A DNA stretch of 64,000 nt from Protoeuglena noctilucae. Its lineage: Eukaryota. The notes below the pieces were generated by a model, which was given only the letters and a program-made list of their open reading frames with translations, did not search any database and was not told the origin of the DNA. The DNA lies in the NCBI GenBank assembly GCA_958009085.1, contig OY253680.1, forward strand, positions 868,001 through 932,000, read 5' to 3'. Both the position numbers and the translations under genes were made by a program. Below, in pieces: positions 14,943 through 60,294 of the stretch. Position 1 is the first letter of the stretch; each line of letters begins with the position of its first letter.

Positions 14943-17900
14943 ATGTCGGGCCCCGGGGCGGCGAGCGGGGAGGGCGGAGGCGTCCCAGCGCTGGTCGACG
15001 CGGATGATCTGGAGCTCGGAGCGCCTTTCAGTGGTGGCGACAGCGAGACGGTCGAGGTGCTGAGAGCGCGCTGGGTCTCGAAGGATCGGGATTTGGCGGT
15101 GAAGCGGGTGGACATGGACCTGCGCGGCACGGCTCCGAGGTCGAGGAGGGAAATGGTCCAAAGGAAGGCCGCGGATCTGGTGGAGATCGCAGCCGCGACG
15201 AGGAGTGCGACTGGCTTGTGTCCGTGAGTCGATGCTGCGGGTTGTAGGGCTGGGAACGAGATCGCCGATGATTAGTATAAACCTGGAACATGTCCTCGCT
15301 CTCCTGCAGGGTCCTGGGCGTGGCCGTCCGCGACCGGAGCCTGCTGGTGGTGATGCCGGTGTGCGCGCGTGGGTCGCTGGCGCAGCGCCTGGCAGAGGGG
15401 CCTGCCCTTTCGGCGCTGGAGGTAGTGGACGCGGCGGTGCAGGTGCTGGAGGGCCTGTGCGCCCTGCACGAGCGGGGCATCGTGCACGGCACGATCAAGC
15501 CCAGCAACGTGCTGGTGGACGACGAGGGGCGGCTCCTGCTGACAGACTACGGGCTGGCGGGGATAGCGGCGACAGCCGATGTCCAGGTGGGGCCGGGGCG
15601 CAGGAGGAGCGCTTGCCAAGCACTCTTGTCAACATCTGCCTGTGTGTCGTGGCAGATGCATACACTGGCAGTGCCCTCTCGGTCCGCCTCCGCAGCTGGA
15701 GCCAAGGAGGGTCGGCGAGGAAGCGAGGGTCGGCGCTGGGGTGTACGCGGCCCCGGAATGCAGGGGCGAGGGTCGACGTGTCGCGAGTCTCGCGTCGGAT
15801 GCGTACGCATTGGCAGCCGTGCTGTGTCACGCGGCGTCGGGTCAGGGGGCGCCCGCCGATGGCAGGCCCCCTGAAGTGCCGGATACGGTGCCGGAGCCAC
15901 TGCGGTCGGCGTTGCGGGGGGCGCTGCGTGAAGTGGCGGAGGAGAGGATGGGCGTGGCGGACATGCTGGTGGCCGCAAATGAGTCCAGGAGGTGAGTGCC
16001 TGGGTGGGCGAGGAGGAGGGCGTGGCACGCCAGGCGCATGTGGATGGGCTTGTGCGTGTGCAGCATCTCACTCCTGCGACGTGAATGCCCTCGCAGGGTG
16101 TTGCTGCAAACGTGCTGCATCTGCCGATGCGAGGAAGAGGAGGAGGCACTGACGGCGTGCTCGGCAGGGGCGCACCGCATCTGCAAAGAGTGCCTGGGGA
16201 GCCTGGTGGGGACGCTGGCGGACAATACGCGGGCACTGACTGCGGATGGGGACGTGGTGTGCAAAGAGAGCACGAAGCAAGAGTGCGGGGGCGCCTTTCG
16301 GTGCAACGAAATGGTGGAGGCGCTGGTGCAGACGCGGGCGGCAGCGGCGTGTGCGGGGTTTGTGCACGCCGTCCGAAGGCAAGCGTCGGCGGCCGCGGAC
16401 GCCAGGGCGGAGGCCCTGCGGGTGCGGGTGTTGGAGCTGGAGGCGGCAGGCATGGGTGCGGTGGAGGCGACCCTGGAAGCCCATCGGCGGGCGATGGAGG
16501 ATCTGCTGGTCGTGATTCGGTGCCCCGGTTGCCGACGCCCGGGGGACGTCGACGTCCAGAACTGCATGGCGCTATACTGCGCTCCGGATGTTGGCGGGTG
16601 CGGTAGCCACTTCTGCGCGTGGTGCATGGAGGCCTGCCCCGACTCGGACGCGGCCCATGCGCACGTGAGCGAATGCGGGCTGAACCCCAACCGACCGCAT
16701 CTGTACGCGTCAGAGAGGGACCATCAGGACAACGTCCGATGGGAGCAGCGGCTGCGGGTGGTGGCGCGTCTGCGGGACTACTTCACGAGGTGCCACATGG
16801 AGGTGGGGTGGGCGACTGAGTTCGCGACGCTGCCGGCGATCCGGGACCTGGGGTTGCGGTGGGAGGACGTGCGCGCTCACATGGACGGGGTGGTGGTGGT
16901 GCGGACCGGGGACGAGCTGGTGGAGGCGGCCAAGAGGGGCGGGGTGGTGGAGCTGGGCGGGGGCGAGGTGGTGCTGAGGAGGGCGGTGCGCGTGCGGGGC
17001 ACGAGCGTGACGGTGCGCAACGGGACGGTGCGGGTAATAGACGAGGAGATAGTGAACGACGGGTACGGCGTTCAAGTGGAGATGGGCGGGAGGTTGACGG
17101 TCGAAAATGTTCGGGTGGTGGGCACAGGGCTGAGTTGCGAAGACGGCGGGCAGGCAGAGCTTCAGGGCGTGGAGATCGCCGACTGCAGAGAAAACGGCGT
17201 GTTCTGCCGTGACCAAGGATCTAAGATCGTGGTGCAGGGAGGGCGCATTATGGGGTCCAAGGACTCAGACGGGGTGGCATGCGAAGAGGGCGGGCAGGTG
17301 GAGCTGCGGGGCGTGGAGATTGCTGACTGCAGAGAAAATGGCGTCGTGTGCACCGGCCACGGGTCCACGGTCGTGGTGCAGGGGGGGCGCATCACGGGGT
17401 CCAAGGACGGGGCCGGGGTGGCATGTGGACCGTGGGCAGGCAGAGGTGCGGGGCGTGGAGATTGCCGACTGCGAACGCAGTGGCGTGCTCTGCACCGGCC
17501 ACGGGTCCACGGTCGTGGTGCAGGGGGGGCGCATCACGGGGTCCAAGGGCGGGGCCGGGGTGGCATGCCTCGACGGTGGCCATGCGGAGGTGCGGGACGT
17601 GGAGATCGCCGACTGCAATGAGAATGGCGTGTCCTCCCGTGGCCAGGGGTCCAACGTCGTGGTGCAAGGGGGGCGCATCACGGGGTCGGTGGGTGAAAAT
17701 GGGGTGGCTTGTGAGGACGGTGGGCATGCAGAGGTCCGGGGCGTGGAGATCGCCAACAGCAATGACAGCGGCGTGTTCTGCGATGGCCCAGGGTCCAAGG
17801 TCGTGGTGCAGGGGGGTCGCATCACGGGGTCCGTGGAGCACAACGGGGTGGCGTGTCATGAGGGGGGGCAGGCGGAGGTGCGGGGCGTGGAGATCGCCGA

Positions 17901-28431: not shown

Positions 28432-31400
28432 TCACTCGGACTCGGCCCTCTCCTCGCCCACCCGGGGCCTCTTGCCCTGCGGCGTCCCAGCCCCATCCGC
28501 CCTCGCCCGCTTGGTGCCCTTCCCCTTCGCAGGCGTCGCGCCGTCCGCCTCCCCCGCCGCCCCCTCCGTCACCGGCCCCTCCGCCTCGCCACCCCCGCAC
28601 CCGCTGACCGTCACCCCCCTCCGCACGATGCTGCTCGTGCTCTGATCGTCGGCACGCATGGCCACGCCCCCGCAATCAGCAATCACCACGCCCCGCAGCT
28701 CCGCCTTCCCGCCCTTCCAGCAGTGCACGGCGTCGCCCTTGGCCCCCGCCACGCCCCCGCTCACCATCTTGAGCATCGCCCCGCTCTGCACCCCCACCCC
28801 TGCACCCCTCAGCCACACGTGCTCCAGCGTCACGTGCCGGCCCCGGGCGGGCGCGTGCACCATCCACTCCTCCAGCCCCTCCGCAGCCACGAGCGTGCCG
28901 TTTGACAGCGTGATCTTGCCCCGCGAGACGCGCAGCGTTGACCGCAGCGTCACTTCCGCACCACCCAGGTCAGCCTCAAAGCCTTTTGCGTCTGCCGCCA
29001 ACACCGACTCGACCAGGAGAGCCTCGGTCCAGGGCCCAGAAAACGCCTCGTCCTGCACGCGTGTACGCGCGGCACATGTCAAGCTGGGAGGCGTGCATGG
29101 GCACGGCCGGGGTGCATACACACGGGCGGTATCTACATCCAGTTGCCGTCGCATTTCACCTTGCAGAACGACAGCATGACGTCCCTCTTGGCCAGGATGC
29201 CGCCCTTCTTCTGCTCGACGCCCGGCCCGACGCACTCCACCACCTCCACGCCCTCCATCGTCAGCGCCCCCTTGTCCCCGCACGCCGCCCCGCCCCACAC
29301 GCACCGCGCGATGCGGCCCCCGCGCACCGTAGCCACGCTCTTGTCGTGCGACACCCACACCCCGCGGCCCCCGCACCCGTCCACGTCGCAGTGCTCCACC
29401 TTGACCACGCCACCCCCCACGCACAGCACCCCGCTGCCGCGGCACCGCATCAAGCGTACGTTGCGCACCGCGGCCTCGCCTTCCGCTGGCTTGCCCCCCT
29501 CCACGTGCACTCCCGTGCGGCAGTCCTCGATCGCCGCCCCCTCCACCTCGACCTTCGCTCCCGGCCCTGAGAACACACCAGGTCCCTCTGCCGCCGACAC
29601 CGTCCCGCCCCGCACCAGCACTGCCGACCCCTCGCCCTCCCCGAACACCCCGCCAACCTTGCACTCTGAAATCGCGACGCCGTCCGCCTCCACCTTCCCG
29701 CCCTTCGCGCACCGCACGCCGTGGCCGGTAGCCTTGGCGATGCGTCCATTCCGGACGCTCGCGCTCGCATTACTTCCCTCCACGACTACCCCGTCCCCGC
29801 ACCCCTCGATCGCCGCCCCCTCCACCTCCGCCTTGCCTCCCACGCATGCCACCCCAGCCTCCTTGCAGCCCTCGATGCGACCCCCGCGCACCATCGCCTG
29901 CGCGCCCGACCGCGCCCGCACCCCCGCACCCACGCACGATGCCACGGCGGTGTCATGGAGCTCCACGGCGCCGCTCTGCATCTCCACCCCGTCCTGGCGG
30001 CACTCGTCGATGCGCCCGCCCCGCACCACCAGCCTCCCGCCGCCCGTTGCCACGATGCCTGACTCGCATTCGCGGATCTTGACACCCTCAACCGTCACAC
30101 TGCCGGCGGTGAACTGCAGTCCTTCCCCGGAGCACCCGGCCACCGTGCAGTCACGCACCGTGGCCCCGCCCACCGTCCCAATCGACATCCCCGGACCCCA
30201 TGCGCCCGTCACGGATGCCCTCTCCACCTCCACCCTCTCTGCGCCCTGGCATGTGATGCCCCCGCGCTCCACCCCACCCCCCTCCATCCGCAGCGACGCA
30301 CGGTTGAGTTCCATCCCCCCGCCGCGCAGCCACAGGTCGACGAAGGTGACACGCGTGCCCTTACCGTCCGCCAGAACCAGGGGCCCGCGCAGACCCTTTT
30401 CGGCCGTGAGAGTGCCGTTCCGCACGGTCACCCTCCCCCCCGTCACGCACAGCCCCATGCGCATCGCCACCTCCTCTCCACCCAAGTCGACCTCGAGAAA
30501 ACCCTCCGGGCCCAGAGCCTGGGCAGCCTCCCACAGCACAGGGCCTGTCCACGGCCCCGCAAAGGCGACATCCTGCACGAAGAAGGAACGAGATGTAAAG
30601 GTGAAGTCACGGTGCTTCGCAAGCATCGGCCACCAGCGCCAGCGAGCTTGCGGTATCCATATCACCCCCGCACCTTGCAGCCCTGGACCTGGACGTCTTT
30701 CTTAGTCACCACGCCGCCACGCCTCTCGCTGACGCCGGCCCCCCCGTACCCGGACACCTGCAGCCTCTCGGCCGTAACTCTGGCCCCGTCGCTGCACAGC
30801 AGGCCCCCGAAGGCGCAGTCAGAAACCCGACCGCCCCGCACCGTCGCCCGGCTGCTCGTGTGCGACACCCACAAGCCGTGGCCCTTGCACCCCTCGATGT
30901 CCGCATCGTCGGCATCCACGGCGCCCCCCTGGACGCACGGGATGCCGCTGCCGGAGCACAGCTGCACCGCCACCCGCCGTAGGGTGACCTCCCCGCCCTT
31001 CGTGCACAAAACTCCTGTCCCCGGGCAACCCCGAACGACGACCCCATCGCTCAGGTCCACCTGAGCGCCACCCGATACGTCCACGCCGGTGCCGCACAGC
31101 TCCACGACGAGGCCCTTGGTCCCCTCGACGCGGCCCTTGTCAGCAGCGACCACGCCGGCGTGGCCGCACTCGGCGACCTTGCCGCCGTGAACGGCAGCCT
31201 TGGACCCGGCTCCCTCGACCCGCAGTCCCTCTCTGCACTGCGACACGTGCACCCCCTCCACCTCCGCTCTGCCGCCCTCGCTGACCAGCACGGCAGCCCC
31301 GCTCTTGCAGTTGACCACACTGCCCCCCCGTAGCGTCAGGCACGCCGACTCTCCTTGCGCAGTTACTCCGTCCCAGTTGCACCCACCCACGGTCGCCCCG

Positions 31401-33720
31401 TCCACAAAGACGTTGTCAGTCTCGCACAGCAGCCCGCCTTTCCCGCAGTCCGACATCGTGACCGAGCGCAGGACCACCTTCCCGCTTGCCTTGCCCTCCT
31501 CGCCGCCCAGGATGTGAACTCCGTAAGCATTTCGGATGTCTGTGACCCGCAGACCCTCCAGCTGCGCTCCCCCAACGTCCTTCAGGCTCACCCCTCCCTC
31601 CCGGCACTCTGCAAAGGTCCCCTCACGCACCACCAGGCGCGTCTCAGGGCCCTCCGCCGCCAGCGCCACGCCCTGGCACCCGTTAACCGTCGCCGAGGTC
31701 ACCTCGCATGCCAGGGCGCCGCCGAGCCTCACGCCGTCGGCCTTGCATCCCATGATGCGGCACCCTCGGATGACGACGTTGCCGGGGCTGCCCTCTCCCT
31801 CGCCACTGAGGCGCACTCCGCACTCAGCCGCATCGTGGATCTCCACCCTGTCCAGATGTACTGTTCCGCAGCGATTGGAGAACACACCATTAGTGGCGGC
31901 ACCGATGATCGCCCCACGGGTCATCCGGATGGACGCCCTGTTGCCTGCCTGCAGCCCTTTTCCGTGCAGCCGGACGCTCGATAGCTGCAGCTCCGTCCCA
32001 CTGCCGTATGCGAACAGCAGGTACTTTCCTCCCATGTCATCAACGGCTTTGAGAGTCCCGTTGCGAATGGTGAGCCTCTTGAGCCCGCCCACCGACAATG
32101 GCGTCCTGACCCGCACGGTGCCGCCGTGGAGGTCGATCGTTGCCTCGTTTTCACATGCCGCAGCGATGGCCTCGGTCATCAGTGCCTCGGTCCACGGACC
32201 CTGGAAGGACCGGCTCTGCGGACTCGAAGCATCACAGCATGGTCGCGAGCTGACGTGCATGAGGTCAGTGCAGCAATCCTGCCTAAACCGTAACGCAGAG
32301 CATCCCATGCATCACCACAGGCAGACACGGTTCCAAACCCCACGTAGCTAAACCACCAAAACGGCAGCTATCAGTTACACACCTGGCACCCGCCAACGAC
32401 GACGTCCTTGTGCTTGAGCAGCCCCCCGTCCCTCTCCTCCAGGGCGACTCCGAAGCACTCGAGGACCTCCGCGCCATCCACCTCGGCCGTTGCGCTCCAG
32501 CTGCACAACAGCCCTGCCATCCCGCAGCGCCGGAGGCGTGCGCCACGCACGGCGGCCTGGCTGCCTTTGCCGCTGACCCACAGGCCTTGGCCCGCGCAGT
32601 CAGCCACATGAAGGTGCTCCGCCGTCAGTCGGGCGCCGAGGATGCACAGCACACCGCTTCCGGCGCACCCCGCAACCATGAGCCCACCCAGCGTCGCCTC
32701 GCTATTCTCGCCCTCCACCCACAGCCCTGTCCGCCCGCACGCAGTGACTTCCGTCCCCGGCCCTTCCACACGGAGCTTACCCCCGTCTGTGCATCGGAAG
32801 CCACTCTTTTTGCATGCTGTGACCCGGACTCGCTTAACTTGAACGACCCCATTCCAGGAGGACTCCACCCCAGAGTCGCATGCGACAACCTCCAGGTCCT
32901 CCAGAGAGATGGCGGCGTTGGAGCTGACCACACCACTGCCCGCGCATTCCAGAGTCCTGCCGCCGCGGATGCTCAACACCGTGTGGTTGACGGATTGGTT
33001 GCCCTCACCCTCATCCTCTTGGGCCACCGACGCGTATATGCCGTAACCTCGGCAGTTCCTGATATCGATGCCCTCCACCTCCACCTGTGCCGCCTCCGCC
33101 GGCCCTTGGCACTCGACCGACAAACCCTCGAAGCACCCGGAGGTTGTGACGCCCGACAGCACCATCTTGCTCAGGTCGCGGCCAGTCTTCACTGAAATGC
33201 CCGTGCCATGGGTCGCAGCGACCTCGACGCCGGTCAGCTGGACGGACGCGGCGTCCTCGCAGAGCATGCCGACGCCGCAAGCCTGAGAGACGCCCCCGCC
33301 CTCCATGTTCAGGGTTGCCCTCTCGCGCACCTCGACACCCGCCCCTCGCAGCCGCACCATCTCGAGCTCGACGAAAGTCTTCTCGCCTTGGATCACCATG
33401 GCTTGCGCGACTCCGTATCCTGCCACGAGCGTGCCGTTGCGCAGGCTGACCCGGCCTTGCAGGGGCAGTGGGGCGCCGAGCAGGACCTCGCTGCCGTCGA
33501 GGTCGATCCGCGCTCCGTCCTTCTCCGCGGACTGCAGCGCCAGTCGCAGTCGCTCCTCCGTCCATGGCTGCGCCTGCGGCGGGGGCTGGATCTGGGGCAC
33601 GCGCCGGTTGGGCTCAGCGGTTGGCATTTTGCCGCTACCGCGCTCTACGATGCTCGCGGCTCCGTCTGCGCCTGCTCGCCCCGCCGCGCCCCACCTAATC
33701 GACCATGACGTCATCAACGA
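28432..33720 (-). CDS. Large protein of four tandem right-handed beta-helix modules, one per exon, with a basic NLS-like tail
   Basis: Phase-0 introns 32382-32216, 30673-30573 and 29159-29053 join four ORFs in frame. Each module begins (F.G)PWT followed by (I/V/A)DL.G..V....L.......NGTL. 5' end uncertain. Confidence 0.8.
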
Positions 33721-34119
33721 CAACCACGGAGGTTTTCTTCTCCTCGGACGGCTCCATCGCTGCGAAATCGCTTCCGAGGTGCACCTGCATGCCGCGGGGC
33801 GATGGGGCGCGTTACAGGAGGTTCATATCCTCAAGCTGCACCGCTCATTATCACCAACTGAATCACAGCAAATTGCATTAGACCAACGATTCGCGCGGGG
33901 CTCACACCTTGAGGCGCTGTGGCGACTGAGCGATCAAGTGCGTTTCCGACAGAGAGCAGCGCGACTGGATCGAGATGTTCGACAAATACTCAGGGAAAGC
34001 GGCCGTGGACCTCTTCATGCGGATGGCGCAGTCGGACAGGCCCACCCGTCTGACTAGGGCAGAGGACATCTAAATCAAAACGCTCATTAAGGCGTACCCT
34101 CGGCGCAATGCATCCATGT

Positions 34120-49300: not shown

Positions 49301-52300
49301 CTCGCCATCGTGTGCTTCCCGGGACACGCCAAGCTCACGGGGCCAAGGCCGCAGGGAGGGAGTGGGGCTGGGGAGGGAGCGGGTGGGGCAAGTGGTGGTG
49401 CGGGTGCGGGTTCGGGTGCGGGTGGTGGTGCCAATGTGGGTGCGGGTGCCGACGTGGTGCTGGAGGTGGACGACGACGGTGACGGCGACGGTGGCGGGAG
49501 TGACGGCATCCTCGCTGCCAATGGACCTTCCCCCAGTGCATCTCCCAACCACCGTGTTTCTTCGCTCAGTTGGTTCCGTGACCCCAGCCACGCGTCGCAG
49601 TGCCCGATGGTGCTGACGTTAGACTCATTGGGGGAGACCCACAAGGGACTCAGCATACACTCCGCGGGTGAGGGATGAGGGAGACGAGGGATGGGAGGGA
49701 CTGAGCAAACGGCTTGTGGGGGAGTGGGTGCGGGTGGTGGTGCGGTTGCACGGAGCGGTGCTTCACTGACGCAGTGGCGAGAGTGGGTTAATACCATCAA
49801 GTGACGCTGCCCATCTCTCACCCCCCCTTCTGTCTCCCTCCCAGTTCGCATGTACTTGGAGAAGGAGTGGGATCGCCTGGCTGTCAGTGACCCGGACTCC
49901 GTGCCAGCCACGGTGCAGGCGGAGCACCCGGGATGCAAGGTGGGACACGTGCGGGGGGGCTTGCATTTGCGATTTGTTTATATTGCATACCATGATATGA
50001 TTGCTTGGATTGCTGGCAACGAAATGGCACTGGCAGGACGGTCGCTTTGCTTGCCTCTCCAACACCCTACACGCTCACCCACTCACACGCACACTCACCC
50101 CACTACCCTCCCCCCCGTCCTGTACCCCCGCAGCCCGACTTCTCCCGATGCTTCCCGGCCCGCAACCTCCCCAGCCCCAGGCAGACCAACTACTACGACT
50201 GCGGACTCTTCGTCCTCACCACCGCCGCCTACTTCTGCCTGAAACTGCCAGAGTCCGTGCCGGAGGCCCTCGGGCAGCCCAACTCGAGGGTCGCGAGGGC
50301 TTTCGAGAGGGGCCGCGCATCTTCTCCAAAGGACGCGCGCCCGCGACACTCTGGCAGCTGGCACGACATACTGGCGGACCCCGCGGGGGACTTTGGCTTC
50401 CTGCCCTACGCCCGCTGGCTGAGCGCCCGTTGGTACACTCCCGAAATGGCATCGTCCATGCGATTCCGCATCGCCCTCTTCATCCTCAGCCTCTTCCGGT
50501 GAGCGTGGGCGTGGAGGGGGGGTGCGCGAGACGTGCTGTGGGGTGCATGGCGGTTCGTGCTGTGCCACTTGTGCTGTGTGTGAGACTGGTCTTGTTGCAG
50601 TAGTCTCTCACAATGCAATTGTTAGTTGTTGTAACGCGGCACCCGCACCCTCGCGCACCCACGCACCCGTGCCTCACCACTCCCATCACTCACCCCCACA
50701 TCTCTCCCCCTATCTCCCATCTCGCAGCCGCGAGATCGAGTCCAATTCCGGCTCCCTCCCCGACCACCACGCCCGCCTGGCCCAGATCGATGAGTTTGCG
50801 GGCGTGTTTGCCGCCACGCTGCGGGACAAGTTCGGTGCCACGGAGGGGGACCCGGTCGAGGAGATCAGGAGGGACATCCAGGGGCAGGTGGCGGAGACGG
50901 AGGTGAGTGGGGTGGGTGATGGGGCGTGTGTGTGTGTGATGTATGAGCAGAGAGGGACATCCAGGGGCAGGTGGCGGAGACGGAGGTGAGTGGGTGGTGT
51001 GTGTGTGTGACTGGCACAGAGGGACAGGTGGCAGAGACGGCGGTGAGTGGGTGGGGAGATGTGATGCGGGGTGTGTTGGTGGTGGAGGGGACCGCAGCGA
51101 GGGGATGGTGGGTGGGTGTGACATGAGCAGAGAGGGGCAGGTGGCAGAGACGACGGTGAGTGGGTGGGGGATGTGTGAGTAGTAGAGAGGGGCTCGTAGT
51201 GTCGGGGGCGGGCAGTGAGACGCGTTCGCACCCTTCCCTCCCAACCACTCCTGTCCTCACCCTTTCACCCCCCCTACCCATCCCATGTACCACTCCCCAC
51301 CCCTCATCCCTCCCTCCCCCATGCCCCCAGGCTGAGCGTGCCGCCTGCCGCACCAACACCTGCCGCCACGCCTCCACTCCCACCAAGACATCCCAGGGCA
51401 TGATAGGCACTATGTTTGGCATGCTGACGGGGGTTGGCAAGAGGGGCAAGAAGGGGGAGGGTGTGAGGGAGGCGATTGAAGTGGATGAGGGGGACGAGGG
51501 GGGCAGGGAGGGGCTGTGGAGGGTGGGGGAGGTGAGGGTGGGTAGTGGGGTGTGACAGAGGGGCGGCGGGGCGTGGGGGAGGTGAGGGTGGGTGGTGGGG
51601 TGTGACAGGGGGTTGGTGAAGTGGCTGCTTGGGGAGGTGAGGGTGTTTAGCGGGTGCGTTCTAGGGTAACATGCATTGGGTGTAGGGTCCTTGGGGCGAG
51701 AGGATGTAGGATGGCCATGAGCGACTGATACATAGAGAGACATAGAGAGCTGGCCTATATATCACTTAAACCCCATTCTTGTCTCTCCCTTCACGCAGAA
51801 AGGCGCATGGGATATGGCAGCCGTGCCTGACAGCCAGGCGTCTGACAGGGACGGTGGGGAAAACCTGGACGCCGTCCCTGGCCCTCCCCTGCGATTGAGG
51901 GGCCTCGCCCTCCCAAACGACGCGCCGCTGATGAGGAGCGGGGGTGGGGTGGGTGGTATGGGGAGTGCAGTTGGTATGAGTGGTGCGGTTGGCGTGGGTG
52001 GTACGGGGAGTGCGGTTGGGATGGGTGATGTGCGTGGTATGGGTGGTGCGGTTGGTATGGGTGGTGTGGGTGGTATGGGGAGTGCCGTTGGTATGGGTGG
52101 TCTGGGGAGTGGTGTGGGGAGTGGGGCGGTGGGCGGGAGGGGAGGGAGTGCGCCGTCAGCTGGAATGGGGGAGTCGCTGTGGCGCAGGAAGTCTCGAGTT
52201 GTCGATGACGATGACATCAACGATCCAATCGAGACGGTATCTGACCATGGCAGCGGTGGTAATGGTAATGGTGGTAATGGTGGTGGGGTTGAGGGCGATG

Positions 52301-54238
52301 GCATTGTGGACAGCCCAGGGGGTAGTAGGGGCACTGCGCATGCGGAGAGAGCGGTGGGGTCGAGAGGGGCAGGAGCGGTGCCGGTGTCGCTGCCAGCCAC
52401 GCCCGTGAGCCAACACGGCGTGGCGCACGATGGGCCTGGCAATGGGAGCGTGCAGGGCAATGGGAGCATGGATGGCAAGTCCATCCACAGATCCATCGAC
52501 AGGTCGATTGACAGGTCGATGGATAGACCAACACCGAGTAGGCTGGACGTCCTTGCTCCCTCGCTGACCCCCGCATTGACGGCGTCCCGCGAAGACGCCC
52601 CGCGGCTGGGTGGGGCGGTGGGGGCCGCCACGCCTCAGATGGCCCTGGGTGGTGGCACCCCACATGCCACGAGCGCTGGGAATGGGAGCAGTGGGGGTGG
52701 CACTGTGGGTGGCGGTGGTGTGGGTGGGAGTGCTGTGGGTGGCAGTGCGGTGGGTGGTAGCGCTATCGGTGGCAGTTGTGGGGGTGGCAGTGGTGTGGGT
52801 GGTAGCGCTGGGCTCAGCGGTGCCCTTGGCGGTGCGGTGGGTTCCATAGCCCCCGTCTCTTCCTCAGCAGTGGCAGTGGCAGTGGCGAGCAGCCCCGCTC
52901 CTAAGCTGGGCGTGTCGGAAGAGCCATTGGTGGCGTTTGTGCTGCGGGAGTCGGGCAGAGGGGTGAGGCATGGGGAAGGGTGGGATGAAAACATGGAGTG
53001 ATTTGTTGTGACGTGATGTGACCTGTTGCCACGCCACAGCGCATGTGCTGCAGTTGTCTCAACACACCACGCATCGCAGTGCAGTGCAGCAGTTGCCTCG
53101 CCCCTTCGCCCACCCCCCGCAGTCGATCCGCAGCGCCGGCACTGCCGGCACTGCCTTGGATATCGGATCGAATCCGGCCTCGTCCCTCCCGCGACCGGCC
53201 CTGGACGCCACCCTGCGCCCGCCCCCGGGGTCACCAGAGCGGTCGGGGGATGGGGAGGGGAGGGGCATGGGGAATGGGGAGGGGAGGGGCTGGGATGATG
53301 GGAATGGGGAAGGGAGGGGCTGGGGGTCGCAGCGGAGCGTGGGACAGCCCCACAACGCTGCCGAGAGTCGAAGCCCTGTTGCGAGAAGGCCTGTGGGTAC
53401 TGGGCCAATAGCAGGGCCAACAGCCGGGGTGTCAACAGCGAGGCCAATAGCACGGGCAACAGCTGGGCCAACAGCGGTGGGGCTGTCAAGGAGGGATGTC
53501 GACGCTTCCCTCCTCGCGTTGCCTCGGATGGCGGTGCCCCGGGTGTCCCTGGGGGTGGAGGAATCGGACGGGTTCCATTACCGCCGATTAACGGGGATAG
53601 GGCAGGTGCCCTTCGAGGGGAAGCACACGGTGTTCGTCGACACGCCAGAGAAGACGCCAGAGAGGGGTGTCGCGGGGGCGGTGGGGAGGGCAGACGCGGC
53701 TGCTGCGCTGTTGGTGGAAGTCGATTCGATGCGGGGAAAGTGCGACAGCGACGGGGGTGGGAGCGTGGAGCTGGTGGTGGATGGTGGGGCACAGAGCGCA
53801 CCACAGTCGGGGCGTGCGGGGACGGGTGCGAGGGGTGCGAGTAGGGGCAGGGGGACAGGCAGGGGCGGGTCTGGGCCTGGCAAGCACGGGGGTGGGCGGG
53901 GCGGGTCTGGGTCCCAGTTGCGTGAAATGCAGCGGCGTCGGCAGCGGTTGCGGGCGCGTCGGCAGGCGCAGGAGAGCGACAGCGAGTGGGGCAGCGAGGG
54001 GGGCGGCGGCAGTGACAGCGATGGGGAGTACGTGCCATCGACAGCCAGCCGGGGGCAACGGGTGCAGAAGCGGGGGCGCGAGAGCGGTGACAGCGATGGG
54101 GAGTACGTGCCATCGACCGCCAGGGGCAGGCAGCGGGTGCAGAAGCGGGACCGCGGCGGTGAGGGGGCGTGGGATGCGGAGAGGAGAGGCGGGGGGCGGC
54201 GCGCGGTTGCGGTGGTGGGGGGGCGTGGCGACACATGA
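46338..54238 (+). CDS. Ulp2/SENP-like SUMO protease (peptidase C48) with an N-terminal Cys-rich motif and a long low-complexity C-terminus
   Basis: DLDYLLDEEFIHDQ, HFFDPHFF, KWTKGVDIFSK, PINSALHWSL (His), LDSL (Asp), RQTNYYDCGLFV (Gln, Cys). Whether 46338-47200 and the far C-terminal exons belong to the same gene is inferred. Confidence 0.8.
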
Positions 54239-54405
54239 GGGAGGAGTGGTGTGGCTCTGTGGGTGGGTGCGTGTCGTGGGTCTGGTTTGTGCGGCGAGCA
54301 TCGGTGCTAGGTTAGAACAGAGCTGAGTGGTCTGCGGAGATGAGAGCACATGCATGGCGTATGTTGAGTCATTGTTGAACAAAGCGCTAGCACTCTCATA
54401 TGCCT

Positions 54406-54722
54406 GTCTCATATGCCTGGGGTGGCAGCCCCAGGCAAGCTGTATGCTGAGCGTCTCCCAGTCACGCGGCACATATCGACACATAGTGGCACACAGTCAA
54501 GCGACCCGTTGCTTCAACTCTACTAGTATGCACGTGTACCCTTGCACCGTGCCTGAGGGTGGATATCGATGGCTGCATAGTACTAACAACGCCATTGCAG
54601 TCGGGCATGCATGTGGTAGGGGCCCACCCATGCCTTACAGGGCGGTGGAGCACGCGTGGACCCAGCAACGACGCCCGCCCCGCCACACAGCCGCGAATCC
54701 GACGCGGGGAGGGTGGGGCTCA
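54406..54722 (+). repeat. Direct repeat, copy 1 (homologous to 58638-58934)
   Basis: Shared blocks gtctcat.tgcctggggtggcagcccc.ggcaagctgt, cgacccgttgcttcaactcta, attgcagtcgggcatgcatg, cgccacacagccgcgaatccga, ggagggtggggctca. Confidence 0.9.
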
Positions 54723-55103
54723 GTACTGTCATGGGACATGTTGACATGCGCAGCGCTACATGCAAAGCGAACCCGTCATACCGACGCCCATGGCCAGCCC
54801 ATCAGCTGACCTCGCAGCTGTTTTTGCCTCGTGCCCGGCTCGGGTCACTGCTTGTCGTCGGGCACGGTGCCGGGAGTCCTCTGTGTCTTCTTACTCTGCG
54901 AACGCAGCACGGGCGAGGGGCTCACGTGGATGTCGACATGTCATCAGATCACAGCACGTTACCCAGGAGCATTCTCTCGCAATCAGCCAGCATCTCTCAA
55001 CCGCACTGACAAGCCCACTCACGGGTGCGCCTTGCAGGGGCGTCCGTGGCGGCGAAGTCATGACGGCCGGCTGCAGCGCCTGCATGCGCAGGGGTGTGGA
55101 GAG

Positions 55104-57843
55104 TTAGTTGCTGCAAGATACGAACCATGAGCAGCTGCATAAAATATAGGCAAGCTCACGCAGTGCATATCGCACCTGGGTGGGCACGGGAGGGAAGGCC
55201 CAAAGGAACGAACCGTGTACCTTGTGGTTTGCCACCTTGGGCTCCCCCTGAAACGTGATCAGGTTACCGTTCTTCCCCAGGAATACCTGGTCTTTCGGCG
55301 GACAATTTTTATTTTGTTGTGTGAAGATTCTGTAAATTTCGCTGGGGTCTTTGGGAACGTAAATGACAGAGCCCTTCTTACCGCCACCAGTGGTCGTCTT
55401 CTCAAGCTGCACGTTCACACCGATTGCGTGCTCGAACGGGACACCCTGTGTATAAAGAGATTGTCGGCATATTAATACTAATATTGGTATAAAAATATGA
55501 CAACATTATGTTTCGCCTTCATGCGCACCACTTACCAGGGAGATCAGCCGTGCCTGGAGTCCTGTGACGGTTTCCAACATGCCATTGTTCTCGTAGCACA
55601 CACTTTTGTACAAGTCGTCCAAATCTTTTCGAGCACTGAGGAAACCGTTTTGGTCTGACGAACACTTGATGTAAAACTTCGTCTCGATTGACGTTCCACA
55701 TGCCTTTACAAAGACCACAGCCGCTTTTGGCTCTATGCCCTGCGTACAAAGCAAATGTTACATATCTGTTTAAGACCCCCCATGGAATAAAAAATGAAAT
55801 ATGGACAAAACATATTTTAGTAGGAGAATGTTTTACATCCCCCTAAAATGGAACTTACCATTAAGACGAGTTTTGCGACGTTGCGAGCACGCTCTGCATT
55901 CCCCTTTTTTCTCCCATTAGTTTGGGCTGCTACCAAGTCAATCAGTTTTTGTGCGCCATTGAATGCAACTGCGGGAGAGCGGAAGCTAATAAAAAAATTT
56001 AGACAGACATGTTAATAGTACTTACATGTCTAACATGTCAGTACACTAACATTTGTTTTATTTAAAGAATATTATAGGAATATTATTATAATAATAATAT
56101 TATAATAATTATATTATATTATATTATATTATATTATATTATATTATATTATATTATATTATATTATATTATATTATATTATATTATATTATATTATATT
56201 ATATTATATTATATTATTATAAGAATATTAAAGAATTTAAAGAATATTATTCCTTTTTGTTTATATAATATTTTCAAAAAGCATATCGTGCAATTTCTCT
56301 TACTCACTTGTTGTGGTATAAACACCACCAGAGTCTTCGTCACCATTGAGAATTCTGCCCACGTCTGCGTTGTGCTCCCAGATGTCGTAGCCCTTGACCT
56401 CGGCAAAGACCGGCTTGGTGGGCTTCTCGTCGAGCGACGTCCACAGCAGCTCACAGCGCTTGTCGTGTTTGCTCCATATCTCCGTCATGCGCACAGTCGC
56501 GACGATGGGGTCATGGTCGAAAATCTCATTGATCTCGTCCACCCCTACGGTGTTGCCCTTGCTGTCCACGAGATCCACCACGTGCTTGCACAGACTTACG
56601 TCGGTGAACCCAACGCCAAGCCTCCCCTGGGGAGAAGGCTCGACGGTGCCGACAAAGTCGATGACACCCACCGCCTTCCGAGTCTTGAGCCTCTCCAGGA
56701 GGAGGGAGTAGTCGGGTGTGAACCTCCTGCCGGGCTTGCACTCATACACGGGGACTTGGACCCTCAGCCAAGAAGAATAAACGCCTCGACACACCATCTC
56801 CTCCTCGAGCCGGAAATTGGCGTCGCACCCAAACAGGACGGGCAACTGGTATGCATCCGCCAGCAGCGTCAAGATCTTGCATGCTGCCGACCACTGGCTG
56901 CGGGCAATGATATTTATGTAAATAACCAGTATAAGAAAAACACATGTCTGAAGTAGTAAGAACACAATCTACGGCATGCAAACTTACCAATATTTCTGCT
57001 TCTTCATATATGCACAATTATTGTTGCCGTGATAGCTGACTGCTATGATATCCTGTCCCCCACTTTCCGACTTGCACAATGCGACGAGCATTCTGTCGTT
57101 ATACAAGCAGGTTAGGTAGTTGGTTAATGATGCCTGTTCCCCATCTTCCAGCCCCGGACACAGCTTAATCTCTTCAAGCTCGTCCCAGTCCACTGCAAAC
57201 AAGAATGCAGAGCGAATGAGTGGAGTCCTACTTTGAGCGTGCAAGTACATTAACTGCATTCCAGCGACTCACGTCCTGCCTCTCTGAGCTTGCGCTTGAA
57301 GGCGTGCTGGGAAATCCGCTCTGCTTTATAGTTGCTCTTCTTTACCACGATTCCCAGCCGAACAGCTTTTGTATTCTCCTTCATTGGGGAGAATAGGAAG
57401 ACGTACTCGAGGCTGGTGTTTTTGTCCGGCCGCATGGCGTCGCACAGGTAGTCGTCCGAGTTGCTTGGCACCTCCTGGAGCATGGCAATGTCGGGCTTCT
57501 CATCAGCAAGCAGCTCCTTGACCATCTCGTACCGGAAAGAAATTTGACTTGGTTCGGTGCCGTCCGGCTTGGTTCTCTCTTTTATTTTGTCCATCACGTA
57601 TTGCATGCAGCCGCCATTTGCATCTTTGCGCGGCCCCATGTTGGCCGAAAAGAGCTTCATGTCGACGGCGGCTTGTGAAGTCGGCGGCTTCGCGTCAGGG
57701 GGAGCCTGCGGGCCATGGGCGCGGGTGTGGGAGAAACACGTCATTTTTTGTTGGCCCGCAAACGAGGCCTCTTTCGGCCTCATTACTCTCCGTCCAACCA
57801 CCATACATTATTCTTTAATAGAGCTTACCTTTTTGGGTGCCAT
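55104..57843 (-). CDS. Endonuclease/exonuclease/phosphatase (EEP, DNase I-like fold) protein with a C-terminal extension, at least 7 exons
   Basis: Exons 57843-57829, 57705-57273, 57192-56988, 56897-56308, 55968-55859, 55739-55536, 55445-~55176/55104 splice in frame. Motifs KLFSAN, PDIAMLQE, VSYHG, GCDANF, VIDF, FDHDPI. Confidence 0.8.
56083..56222. repeat. (TATAT)n microsatellite inside an EEP-gene intron
   Basis: About 140 nt of A/T only, mostly perfect ATATT units. Confidence 0.97.
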
Positions 57844-58595
57844 CCTGGCAAGCACCTCCGAGGAGCTCGCGGATTACGCGCGTGCCCGAGAGCCAGCACA
57901 ATACGTGGCCCGAAATGCAGGGAGAGCACCTGGACTTTTGTGCCTGTGATTTGCAAAGCGTAGGTTTGTCAAATGCGTCTTATGGTTAAAATGCCCCGTA
58001 ACACCACGGGGCCGCTGGGCAAGGCGGGGTCAACAGGAGGCAGGTTAGCTGAAGGCTCTGAGCGCTGCAGGCCCTTCCAGCCCCTATCCGTGGCGTAGCC
58101 ATCGACAAACCCACCCGTAAAGCAAGTGGAGCGGGCGTTTCGGCATAAATTTACAGCGGCAGGACGCAGGAAGCTTGCAAAGTGTCGACGAACTCTCACA
58201 GCGCGAACTAGTGGCACGAGCCGAAGGTACCGCGCGGCTTGAGCGAAACATTTCCCTCGCTTGTCCCGGTGGAGCCGATACAACCTCTGTAGCGGCCATG
58301 AGCTGCCAAACAGAGAACACACCCAAAACGACCGACCAAAACGACCAAATCCACCGCCTCCCTGCACTCCGCGTGCAAAATAGCCTCTTTTATAGCTGGA
58401 CCTAACCTTGTTTGGCAGCCCTGCTATTCTCTCTTCCAACCTAAAACGACCTGCCAACCTTCTCAGCCGCGAGGGTGGATGTACCTGCTAATGACCAGGT
58501 CTTGCAAATAGAGGCTGAATCTGGGCCTACTGGCAGAAACGCACCACGGCAGAAACACTAGCGAGGGCGCCAGAGAGGGGTGCATGTCGAGGGGA

Positions 58596-58618
58596 GGGTT
58601 TAGGGTTTAGGGTTTAGG
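58596..58618 (+). repeat. Interstitial telomere-type repeat (TTTAGGG)3
   Basis: agggtttagggtttagggtttagg. Confidence 0.85.
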
Positions 58619-58637
58619 CGTGACCCGAGCACGTCAC

Positions 58638-58934
58638 GTCTCATGTGCCTGGGGTGGCAGCCCCGGGCAAGCTGTCTGCTGAGCTGCTCCCAGCCACACG
58701 GCAAGTAGCGACACACAGTCATGCGACCCGTTGCTTCAACTCTAGTATGCACGTGCACCCTTGCACCATGCCTGAGGGGTCGATGGCTACATAGTACTAA
58801 CAACGTCATTGCAGTCGGGCATGCATGCGAGAGGGCCCACCCATGCCCTGGAGGGCGGGAGAGCAATCGTGGATCCAGCAACGACGCCTGCACCGCCACA
58901 CAGCCGCGAATCCGAGGCGGGGAGGGTGGGGCTC
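58638..58934 (+). repeat. Direct repeat, copy 2 (homologous to 54406-54722)
   Basis: Same conserved blocks as copy 1 with scattered substitutions and small indels. Confidence 0.9.
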
Positions 58935-58992
58935 ATTGCTGCACGTATCTCAGTTGTCCGCTTGTTCTGCGTACACAACACGTGTGAAGGGC

Positions 58993-60294
58993 TCACCGAG
59001 CTGCGCGGATGTCACCGTAGTGCCAGTCGCTGCCCTCGACGTCCGCGCCCAGCTCCACCAGGTCGCGGAAAGCGTCGAGGCGATCGTTCGTGACGGCCAT
59101 ATGGAGCGCGGGCAGGCACACATGCAAAGCCTGCACGCTCAGCCCCCGCGCCGCCAGCCACCGCACCACCTCGCCGTTCGCCGCGAAGCGCATAGCATGC
59201 CGATTGTGCATATCGGCGACGGCAATTCCCAGCTCCACCAGGAGCCCCATCATGGCCACATCGCCCCGATCCGCGGCATGACTGAGGGCTGTGATGCCTT
59301 CATCAGAAGGATACTCAGGGTCACCGGGAGCATTGACATCTGCCCCCGCCTCCGCCAGCCGCCTCACGATGCTCAACGTCGTGTGTCCCTCGCACACGGT
59401 CGCCAACGTGCGATCCTCGCCGCCCGGCCCGACCTTAGCTGACGCCCCCGCCTCCAGCAGCGCCTCCACCACTGCCTCATGCCCCCGGTATGCGGCAAAC
59501 ACCAACGCCGTCCACCAGTAGCGATCACCGTACCATCCAACCCAATGCCCTTTACTCTCCAAATCCACCTCCGCCCCCGCTGCCAGGCACGCCTTGACCG
59601 CCTCCAAGCAGCCCCGCCCCGCGCAGTACGTCATCAGCGGCCATGCTCCCTGCAGCCGCCGCTTGACGTCCACTCCCATCGCCAGCGCCCCTCGCACCGC
59701 CCGCGCCACCTCCGCGTTCCCCAGCGCATACGCCCACTCCACCTTGCCATCCGCCCCGCGCCCCACCGGCCGCCGAGCCAGCACTGCCACCGTCAGCGGA
59801 GACTGCTGGAAAGAGACCTTGCGCCATGACATACCGTGCAGGTCCGGCGCCTCCGCCACCAGCACAGCCAGCCACCACAGCCCCAAGCTCGCCAGGTGGT
59901 GCGCGTGGGACCCGCCAAACACATGCACTGCCACCGGACCGCAGTCGAGCTCCATGTCGCGTATGCGTCCCTTAAAGTACTCGCGGAGGTCGTTTCCAGT
60001 GTCCTCCACCGTCGCCCGGATGCCCCACGCCCTCCACACCTCGTCCACCTCGCCGCGCATCTCTCGCGACACCACCCGCGCCGCCGTCGCGTCGCGCAGG
60101 GGCACCAGCCGCAGGATCTCGCAATGCAGCTCCCCGGGCAGGTCGTCCACCCTGCGCGCGCGATCGGGTCGCGCGGAACGCTGTAATGAGCTGAGCACAG
60201 CGCGCACAGCAGTTGCATCCCCGAGCCCCCTCTGCGCGACTCTCCGACGCGCGGGGCCCCCGGCGTGGCCTCGGGCGCCTGCTTGGTCTTCCAC
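58993..60294 (-). CDS. F-box + ankyrin-repeat protein, single long ORF
   Basis: DDLPGELHCEILRLVP...VVSREM F-box; ankyrin units TALVFAAYRGHEAVVEALLEAGA, TALSHAADRGD, PALHMAVTND. Confidence 0.85.
   Translation of the reverse strand: MEDQAGARGHAGGPARRRVAQRGLGDATAVRAVLSSLQRSARPDRARRVDDLPGELHCEILRLVPLRDATAARVVSREMRGEVDEVWRAWGIRATVEDTGNDLREYFKGRIRDMELDCGPVAVHVFGGSHAHHLASLGLWWLAVLVAEAPDLHGMSWRKVSFQQSPLTVAVLARRPVGRGADGKVEWAYALGNAEVARAVRGALAMGVDVKRRLQGAWPLMTYCAGRGCLEAVKACLAAGAEVDLESKGHWVGWYGDRYWWTALVFAAYRGHEAVVEALLEAGASAKVGPGGEDRTLATVCEGHTTLSIVRRLAEAGADVNAPGDPEYPSDEGITALSHAADRGDVAMMGLLVELGIAVADMHNRHAMRFAANGEVVRWLAARGLSVQALHVCLPALHMAVTNDRLDAFRDLVELGADVEGSDWHYGDIRAAR

Follow-up and report, generated by a model that had tools for sequence, protein, structure and literature searches.

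In a 64,000-nucleotide stretch of DNA from Protoeuglena noctilucae (assembly GCA_958009085.1, contig OY253680.1, positions 868,001 to 932,000 of the forward strand; hereafter the window, whose own numbering is used throughout), a low-GC island at 55104..58595 carries on its minus strand a seven-exon gene, the product of which contains the catalytic motifs of the EEP superfamily of enzymes. The island holds a genuine intron-bearing nuclear gene coding for a lineage-restricted protein of ~630 residues, and it lies in a unique 3.9-kb segment bracketed by a long direct repeat, with a short telomere-type array near the right-hand copy. Taken together, the observations give a somewhat better than even chance to a lineage-restricted, EEP-like gene that resides in an old insertion with a duplicated target and a telomere-type scar.

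The gene model was built from stop-to-stop open reading frames (ORFs) and splice-site contexts. The seven exons amount to 1899 nt, i.e. 632 residues with the stop codon counted in the nucleotide total, and contain no internal stop, which bears out the original prediction of seven exons splicing in frame to about 600 residues. A tentative exon 1 (57829..57843, MAPKK) and a tentative intron 1 (57706..57828; 123 nt, phase 0, GTAAGC..CAG, GC 0.52) precede exon 2 (57273..57705, residues 6-150), which holds the EEP-like N-terminal part (LFSANMG, PDIAMLQEV) found by profile and language-model matches. Intron 2 (57193..57272; 80 nt, phase 1, GTGAGT..CAG, GC 0.47) leads to exon 3 (56988..57192, residues 150-218) with the SYHG motif, and intron 3 (56898..56987; 90 nt, phase 2, GTAAGT..CAG, GC 0.36) to exon 4 (56308..56897, residues 218-415), which motifs and alignment identify as the C-terminal half of the EEP-like domain (GCDAN, GVIDF, FDHDP). 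Beyond intron 4 (55969..56307; 339 nt, phase 1, GTGAGT..CAG, GC 0.15) comes exon 5 (55859..55968, residues 415-451), whose acceptor, CCCGCAG at 55969, keeps the reading frame and whose last residues are KLVLM. Intron 5 (55740..55858; 119 nt, phase 0, GTAAGT..CAG, GC 0.34) separates it from exon 6 (55536..55739, residues 452-519, from GIEPKAAV to RLISL), and intron 6 (55446..55535; 90 nt, phase 0, GTAAGT..CAG, GC 0.33) separates the latter from exon 7 (55104..55445, residues 520-632 and the stop codon), which opens with GVPFEHAI.

All six introns are thus of the GT..AG type with CAG acceptors. They had been described as mostly AT-rich with GTAAG donors; GTAAG is present in four of the six and GTGAG in the other two, and introns 3-6 are AT-rich, while introns 1 and 2 are not. 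The start codon is tentative, and with it exon 1 and intron 1, since translation could also begin at in-frame ATGs of the exon 2 ORF; the true 3' end of the coding sequence is uncertain, too, since the homologue described below lacks an equivalent of the C-terminal ~40 residues. Unique sequence flanks the coding part on both sides: 751 nt upstream (57844..58594, minus strand, GC 0.57), presumably promoter and 5' untranslated region (UTR), and 375 nt 3' of the stop codon (54729..55103, minus strand, GC 0.62), presumably the 3' UTR, the ORFs of which gave no Pfam match.

Relatives of the protein are exceedingly few. An exhaustive HMMER search with exon 4 against 1,835,955,588 representative proteins retrieved three at E <= 0.001, one of them (P0001) being the window's own ORF; the others were P0002 (E 1.2e-15, 48% identity to the query) and P0003 (E 2.2e-05, 33% identity). 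None of the three carries a protein name, and their sources are Logan, ENA and JGI. Their clusters occur on 16, 14 and 14 contigs, respectively, with longest contigs of 907,572, 845,849 and 659,292 nt; because the contig counts are similar, there is a hint that the three clusters represent paralogues from a single organism or from closely related ones. The exon 2 ORF is recorded on 17 contigs, against 16 for the exon 4 ORF, again with 907,572 nt as the longest. Word-based protein searches with P0012, with exon 2 and, among longer proteins, with exon 4 returned the window's own ORF only. A collection of viral contigs yielded no relative, either with a single protein or with an alignment, and scans of metagenomes and prokaryote genomes yielded neither a relative nor a DNA locus. 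The literature consulted on interstitial telomeric repeats and endogenous viruses, in which no search was aimed at the family itself, contained nothing on it.

A homologous gene could be read from ORF pieces in cluster 2 (P0012, P0011, P0010 and P0004). One of them, P0012 (453 residues, on a 2604-nt contig), is unbroken from the strand equivalent to SYHG to the C-terminus and shares 144 of 413 aligned residues (35%) with the island protein. In the homologue's genomic ORF pieces, introns 3, 5 and 6 lie at the same position and in the same phase as in the island gene, and intron 4 agrees in phase and is displaced by no more than 6 residues, within a linker of poor conservation. P0012 itself is open straight through these junctions, as expected of a spliced transcript, and a 2891-nt JGI contig with P0011 and P0010 reads across junctions 3, 5 and 6 and breaks at intron 4. 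Judged by these junctions, P0012 would come from a fully spliced transcript and the JGI contig from one that retains intron 4. On the same grounds, the family appears to consist of intron-bearing nuclear genes whose introns are older than the divergence of the two genes. Such sharing of intron positions at only 35% identity speaks for long residence in intron-bearing nuclear genomes rather than recent arrival.

The endonuclease/exonuclease/phosphatase (EEP) fold, found for instance in enzymes of the exodeoxyribonuclease III/APE1 and CCR4/TDP2/DNase I types, is that of a Mg2+-dependent phosphodiester hydrolase. Its full catalytic set, which had been claimed for the island protein as N, QE, H, D-x-N, D and D-H, was indeed found in the canonical order: N27 (LFSANMG), E83 (MLQEV), H204 (SYHG), D243/N245 (GCDAN), D298 (VIDF) and D345-H346-D347 (FDHDP). 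The D, N, D, H and D of this set are invariant across all three family members. N27 and E83 would presumably hold the metal, and D243/N245 and H346, together with D345 or D347, would activate water and stabilize the transition state; a His at the SYHG position is typical of the EEP branches other than the apurinic/apyrimidinic (AP) endonucleases. The substrate is probably a nucleic acid.

Profile comparisons point, if weakly, in the same direction. An EEP profile was made from 35 proteins of Escherichia coli K-12 and 61 sampled Pseudomonadota genomes (51 of the genomes with a PF03372 match), and hhalign matched the family alignment to it with a score of 29.4 (P 0.0026) over 28 columns at PDIxxLQE; none of 60 column shuffles reached this score (maximum 21.4), and the reversed query scored 19.6. 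A greedy hhalign alignment is collinear over 251 columns, pairs query 1-355 with template 6-269, and sets N, QE, H/Y, D.N and DH against their template counterparts. When the same 35-sequence profile was run with hmmsearch against the spliced protein, it scored 10.0 bits, a value reached by none of 1000 shuffles (maximum 4.9). With exon 2, all 30 matches in the ESM Atlas fell in the EEP set (top 0.94), and P0012, which has no residue in common with exon 2, matched EEP clusters at 0.86-0.87, a lead only by the tool's own scale. The support for the EEP reading is indirect, and we regard it as quite probable that residues ~20-355 adopt a very divergent EEP fold. The resemblance to the superfamily lies in the set and order of the motifs (N; PDIxxLQE; H/Y; G.D.N; D; DH) and in the comparable size of the domain. 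The differences are several: the island domain has ~335 residues with long inserts and falls below every curated cut-off, the spacing from N to E is 56 residues as against 27 in E. coli XthA, GCDAN stands where EEP proteins have GDxN, and F-D-H-D, with an invariant H-D pair, stands where they have S-D-H. As far as sequence comparison can tell, the protein belongs outside every named EEP subfamily compared.

The C-terminal part contains two motifs, KLVLM-GIEPKAAV and RLISL-GVPFEHAI, each interrupted by a phase-0 intron (introns 5 and 6), as originally predicted. The corresponding motifs of P0012 are KLMLM-GLNMDQARAI and RLIDM-GVLYIEAIKV, and each of the two segments, A and B, is conserved between the island protein and P0012 (z 7.0 and 11.5; 0 of 500 shuffles). 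The suggestion that the two motifs are alike and UBA-like found no statistical support: the region gave no Pfam match, UBA included, and segments A and B are not significantly alike, either in the island protein (z 2.3; 16 of 500 shuffles) or in P0012 (z 0.35; 170 of 500). In a low-confidence model of P0012, the one part to exceed 50 in predicted local distance difference test (pLDDT) is the first motif, modelled as helix-loop-helix (pLDDT 54-68), and a UBA-like or helix-hairpin-helix-like binding hairpin at the C-terminus is a reasonable guess. Residues ~415-600 form a family-specific region with two helix-Gly-helix motifs, probably for binding and not for catalysis. A comparable combination is known from TDP2, a 5'-tyrosyl-DNA phosphodiesterase in which a UBA-like domain is followed by an EEP domain. 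Like TDP2, the island protein joins an EEP-type catalytic domain to short helix-Gly-helix motifs of the L..MG....A kind, and it shares with TDP2 the LQEV at the Glu motif and the His at the fourth motif; its order is reversed, however, with the motifs C-terminal and two in number. No TDP2 chain was among the PDB sequence matches at E <= 10 to the family profile, exon 2, exon 4 or P0012.

The island is set apart by its composition. The four 1-kb bins of 55001-59000 have GC contents of 0.483, 0.418, 0.524 and 0.590 and are the lowest of the 64 in the window, the other 60 ranging from 0.610 to 0.730; bases 55-58 kb (0.42-0.52) are the sole low-GC part. At 100-nt resolution the trough extends from ~55.1 to 57.4 kb, with a minimum of 0.00 in the (TATTA)27 array (56084-56217) inside intron 4. 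The AT tract around this array (56079-56229) forms a near-perfect 75-nt palindrome, with arms 76% complementary and 1 nt apart; it is hairpin-prone and lies within a spliced intron.

The difference is not confined to introns, since coding sequence and protein deviate as well. Five neighbouring ORFs with Pfam domains (one ankyrin, four beta-helix) served as the reference. The island coding sequence (mean GC 0.53) has a GC content of 0.67 at third codon positions (GC3), compared with 0.79-0.84 in the five ORFs, and of 0.54 and 0.39 at first and second positions, compared with 0.67-0.75 and 0.51-0.55. The residues F, Y, M, I, N and K (FYMINK) make up 0.27 of the island protein and G, A, R and P (GARP) 0.23, the neighbours having 0.10-0.12 and 0.36-0.40; two homologues share the island's make-up (FYMINK 0.25-0.26, GARP 0.25). 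The observed/expected (o/e) ratio of TpA is 0.70-0.90 in the island versus 0.45-0.51 in host sequence, and that of CpG is 0.90-0.96 versus 0.86-1.02. CpG is not depleted, and this host-like ratio rules out deamination, through methylation or decay of the repeat-induced point mutation type, as the cause of the low GC content. The claims of an AT-richer and compositionally foreign block are hence backed by GC, GC3, amino-acid make-up and TpA alike.

The boundaries of the segment are distinctive, too. The unique sequence at 54729-58637 (3.9 kb) is bracketed by a 323-nt direct repeat, the left copy of which lies at 54406..54728 and the right copy at 58638..58941; the two are 84.2% identical over 323 nt (E 1.7e-98), and the region has no other repeat within the window. 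On the minus strand, TGTAA occurs just once downstream of the island gene, within the left copy (54639-54635). An ankyrin-repeat ORF on the minus strand has its stop at 58993; the right copy follows shortly downstream and, by virtue of this position, is probably the 3' UTR of that gene. A perfect interstitial telomere-type repeat, (AGGGTTT)3.4, occupies 24 nt at 58595..58618, with its G-rich strand on the plus strand, and stops 6-19 nt short of the right copy; the window contains no other telomere-type array, and shuffled sequences gave an expectation of 0.00. The low-GC zone coincides with the segment between the repeat copies and this tract. At the start of the left copy a 13-nt unit, TCTCATATGCCTG, is tandemly duplicated (54394-54419), and a different short duplication (CACGT CACGT) is found at the matching place of the right copy. 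A known RNA or a tRNA as the origin of the repeat can be dismissed, since 53500-59500 has no Rfam match at E <= 0.1 and the window no tRNA.

These features are most simply accounted for by a single event, in which a 3.9-kb segment was inserted long ago into the intergenic space behind the ankyrin-repeat gene. The insertion would have duplicated a long target, now seen as the 323-nt direct repeat, and the telomere repeat at the right junction would have been added by telomerase or captured; a double-strand break repaired with captured DNA and telomerase would leave such a scar. The insertion would be old, as its repeat copies have diverged by 16%. That the gene was kept open while the flanking repeat diverged to this extent suggests selection on the gene. 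Two reports on mammals describe short interstitial telomeric repeats inserted during the repair of double-strand breaks (PMC2246262, PMC7215372). The present array resembles the mammalian interstitial sequences in being a 24-nt perfect array at the junction of unrelated sequences, off a chromosome end, and differs in its 3.9-kb insert, 323-nt duplication and TTTAGGG-type genome, with a repair origin that is inferred.

A number of results weigh against the EEP reading or the insertion. The statistical signal for EEP membership comes almost wholly from one stretch of ~30 residues. In Pfam searches run exon by exon, so that scores could not sum across exons, Exo_endo_phos (PF03372) matched exon 2 only, at E 0.13 and 12.4 bits (cut-off 24.5), and no match was obtained for exons 3-7, P0012, P0003 or P0010. 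PDB sequence searches with the family profile, exon 2, exon 4 and P0012 gave nothing at E < 0.6; exodeoxyribonuclease III appeared at E 1.5, through the same PDIxxLQE stretch as the Pfam match. The hhalign probability against the 35-sequence profile is 11.5%, the E-value against three E. coli EEP proteins alone is 0.11, and the C-terminal half by itself, with GCDAN on GDxN, scores 18.1, which is not significant, as 3 of 60 shuffles attained it. Mean pLDDT values of the AlphaFold2 models, 35.0 for P0012 (3-row alignment) and 42.7 for exon 2 alone, are too low for use. What the family conserves is F-x-H-D and not the canonical S-D-H; in P0003, the FDHDP of the other members is replaced by FSHDA, and with Ser for the Asp before the catalytic His this protein may be inactive. 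In both long homologue contigs the ORF begins with one and the same Met (MLSSTK), at the equivalent of the start of exon 3, so that the N-terminal half, to which the Asn and Glu motifs belong, is not in frame there; either a retained intron 2 or a truncated paralogue may be responsible. As for the insertion, no donor of the segment was found in the collections searched, and the 323-nt unit, counted in the 64-kb window only, could belong to a dispersed repeat family.

Among the alternatives, the one that survives best is an ordinary host gene, i.e. a member of a vertically inherited, fast-evolving, lineage-specific family; local constraints or a weakness of GC-biased conversion would then account for the low GC content, and local rearrangements would have left the direct repeat and the telomere-type tract as unrelated scars. 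We consider this improbable, at about one chance in five, though several findings speak for it. Intron positions are held in common with a homologue of only 35% identity, the clusters on 16, 14 and 14 contigs (longest 0.66-0.91 Mb) are what paralogues of one genome would give, GC3 (0.67) is well above the mean of the coding sequence (0.53), CpG is host-like, and a donor lineage was found in none of the collections searched, be they viral, metagenomic, prokaryotic or the 1.84 billion representatives. On the other hand, the amino-acid make-up lies far from that of the five neighbouring ORFs and is shared by the homologues, TpA o/e is some 1.5-2 times as high as in the host, and the low-GC zone coincides with just the segment that the repeat and the telomere-type tract bracket.

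It is less probable still, and in our estimate unlikely, that the gene is cargo of an unrecognised element with terminal direct repeats, similar to a long terminal repeat (LTR) element or to the large retrotransposon derivatives (LARD) and terminal-repeat retrotransposons in miniature (TRIM), and transcribed from the plus strand. Two repeats in the same orientation do bracket 3.9 kb, each copy has CA at its end, at least three diverged members of the family exist, and the gene is antisense to the plus strand that runs from repeat to repeat; a cargo gene so oriented would keep its introns, because the element would be transcribed on the other strand. Just before the right copy stands GAGGGGAGGG followed by (TTTAGGG)3, and in such an element this purine-rich and telomere-like tract might, with the same low likelihood, be a plus-strand primer or a 3' tail. 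Against this, none of the 21 flank ORFs (54327-59090) has a Pfam match at E <= 0.01, whether to gag, pol, integrase or another family, a single match at E 0.023 being at chance level, and the original statement that no reverse transcriptase, helicase or transposase is visible therefore stands. A target-site duplication of more than 5 nt is absent over 37 x 21 choices of boundary, shorter matches being at chance level, and no primer-binding site was recognised after the left copy, as judged by eye against a consensus. The repeats share the high GC content of the host, the right copy resembles the 3' UTR of the ankyrin gene, and neither the repeat nor the insert has a second copy elsewhere in the window.

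Known retroelement classes fare no better. An LTR retrotransposon or derivative would fit the direct repeats, but target duplication and gag/pol are missing. The segment is reminiscent of a long interspersed nuclear element (LINE) with its AP endonuclease (APE), as both have an EEP-type nuclease in a repeat-flanked, compositionally odd segment with a telomere-type repeat. It differs in that 54.3-59.1 kb holds no reverse transcriptase, the gene has six spliceosomal introns, the fourth motif has His where the LINE APE endonuclease has Tyr, and the flanks are 323-nt direct repeats instead of a poly(A) tail and a short target duplication. A non-LTR retrotransposon is ruled against by the lack of reverse transcriptase, the six introns and the absence of a target duplication longer than 5 nt.

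A related and slightly less likely thought, for which we would allow a little under one chance in ten, is that a chromosome-end fragment was captured here or that the segment is a selfish unit of a new kind, with an orphan EEP nuclease family that spreads by break repair or telomere healing. With comparably little confidence, such a unit would do without transposase or reverse transcriptase and exist in at least three diverged copies, each with its own non-host composition. Equally speculative are its expected traces, namely telomere-repeat scars and long duplications of the target, and the idea that the nuclease might make the break for its own insertion.

More doubtful yet is a remnant of an endogenised large DNA virus (Nucleocytoviricota) or of another AT-richer parasite, in which a single gene survived and gained host-type introns after integration. 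A low-GC island in a GC-rich, alga-like genome would suit it, and one report describes spliceosomal introns in the endogenous giant-virus elements of green algae (PMC9693826). In one of the ESM Atlas EEP clusters (0.86), moreover, the few members with a recorded taxon are 50% viral, Nucleocytoviricota being the commonest, a lead only. However, the viral contig collection holds no relative, the only related clusters among the 1.84 billion representatives are two eukaryote-like ones, and the 3.9-kb segment has one gene and no viral hallmark ORF in its flanks. In addition, three of the four checkable introns share position and phase with the 35%-identical homologue, which implies that the introns predate the split of the two genes. 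Finally, a chimera or contaminant, with a low-GC block of another organism mis-joined in assembly, would explain the abrupt change in composition but is very improbable, since the exon 4 and exon 2 ORFs occur on 16 and 17 contigs of up to 907,572 nt and a host-like repeat on both sides shows the block to be embedded in host sequence rather than appended; the acceptors (..GCAG), too, are GC-rich like the host's.

We thus return to the EEP-like gene in an old insertion, for which composition, splice model, motifs, scarcity of relatives and repeats were observed directly, while fold, chemistry and mode of insertion are deduced. Of the three origins originally proposed, a new nuclease family fits best, given the EEP motifs, the lack of a significant curated match and the two related clusters among 1.84 billion representatives. 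A transferred gene or the cargo of an element is unproven, as no donor, viral or prokaryotic relative, or mobility gene was found.

The surroundings of the island offer some further observations. The adjacent ORF on the minus strand (58993-60294) codes for an ankyrin-repeat protein (Ank_2, E 2.6e-18), the N-terminal part of which contains a stretch, LPGELHCEILRLVP, that is F-box-like as judged by eye. On the other side, 51000-54300 shows a strong excess of G over C (skew 0.24-0.38), with G-rich tandem repeats of GGGGA-type units of 24-30 nt at 53245-53324, and a 75-nt tandem duplication occupies 53998-54147, just left of the left repeat copy. Farther away, long ORFs at 28432-33822 (minus strand) and 15996-17621 (plus strand) match the Pfam Beta_helix and NosD right-handed beta-helix families (E 1e-11 to 3e-36); three of these ORFs stand head-to-tail on the minus strand and form a tandem cluster or a single multi-exon gene.

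At present the case comprises a single orphan gene whose function is inferred. Should the EEP reading be true, there is a branch of the superfamily that is invisible to Pfam and PDB sequence searches, represented by a handful of sequences among 1.84 billion representatives and equipped with a C-terminal module of its own. The island protein is then a candidate for an enzyme that processes DNA or RNA and is particular to the lineage of a GC-rich alga. In addition, the locus offers a clean and datable case of foreign-looking DNA embedded in a eukaryotic chromosome. Once paralogous loci and sister genomes are compared, its long target duplication, together with the junctional telomere-type repeat, could reveal by what route genomes of this kind acquire DNA.

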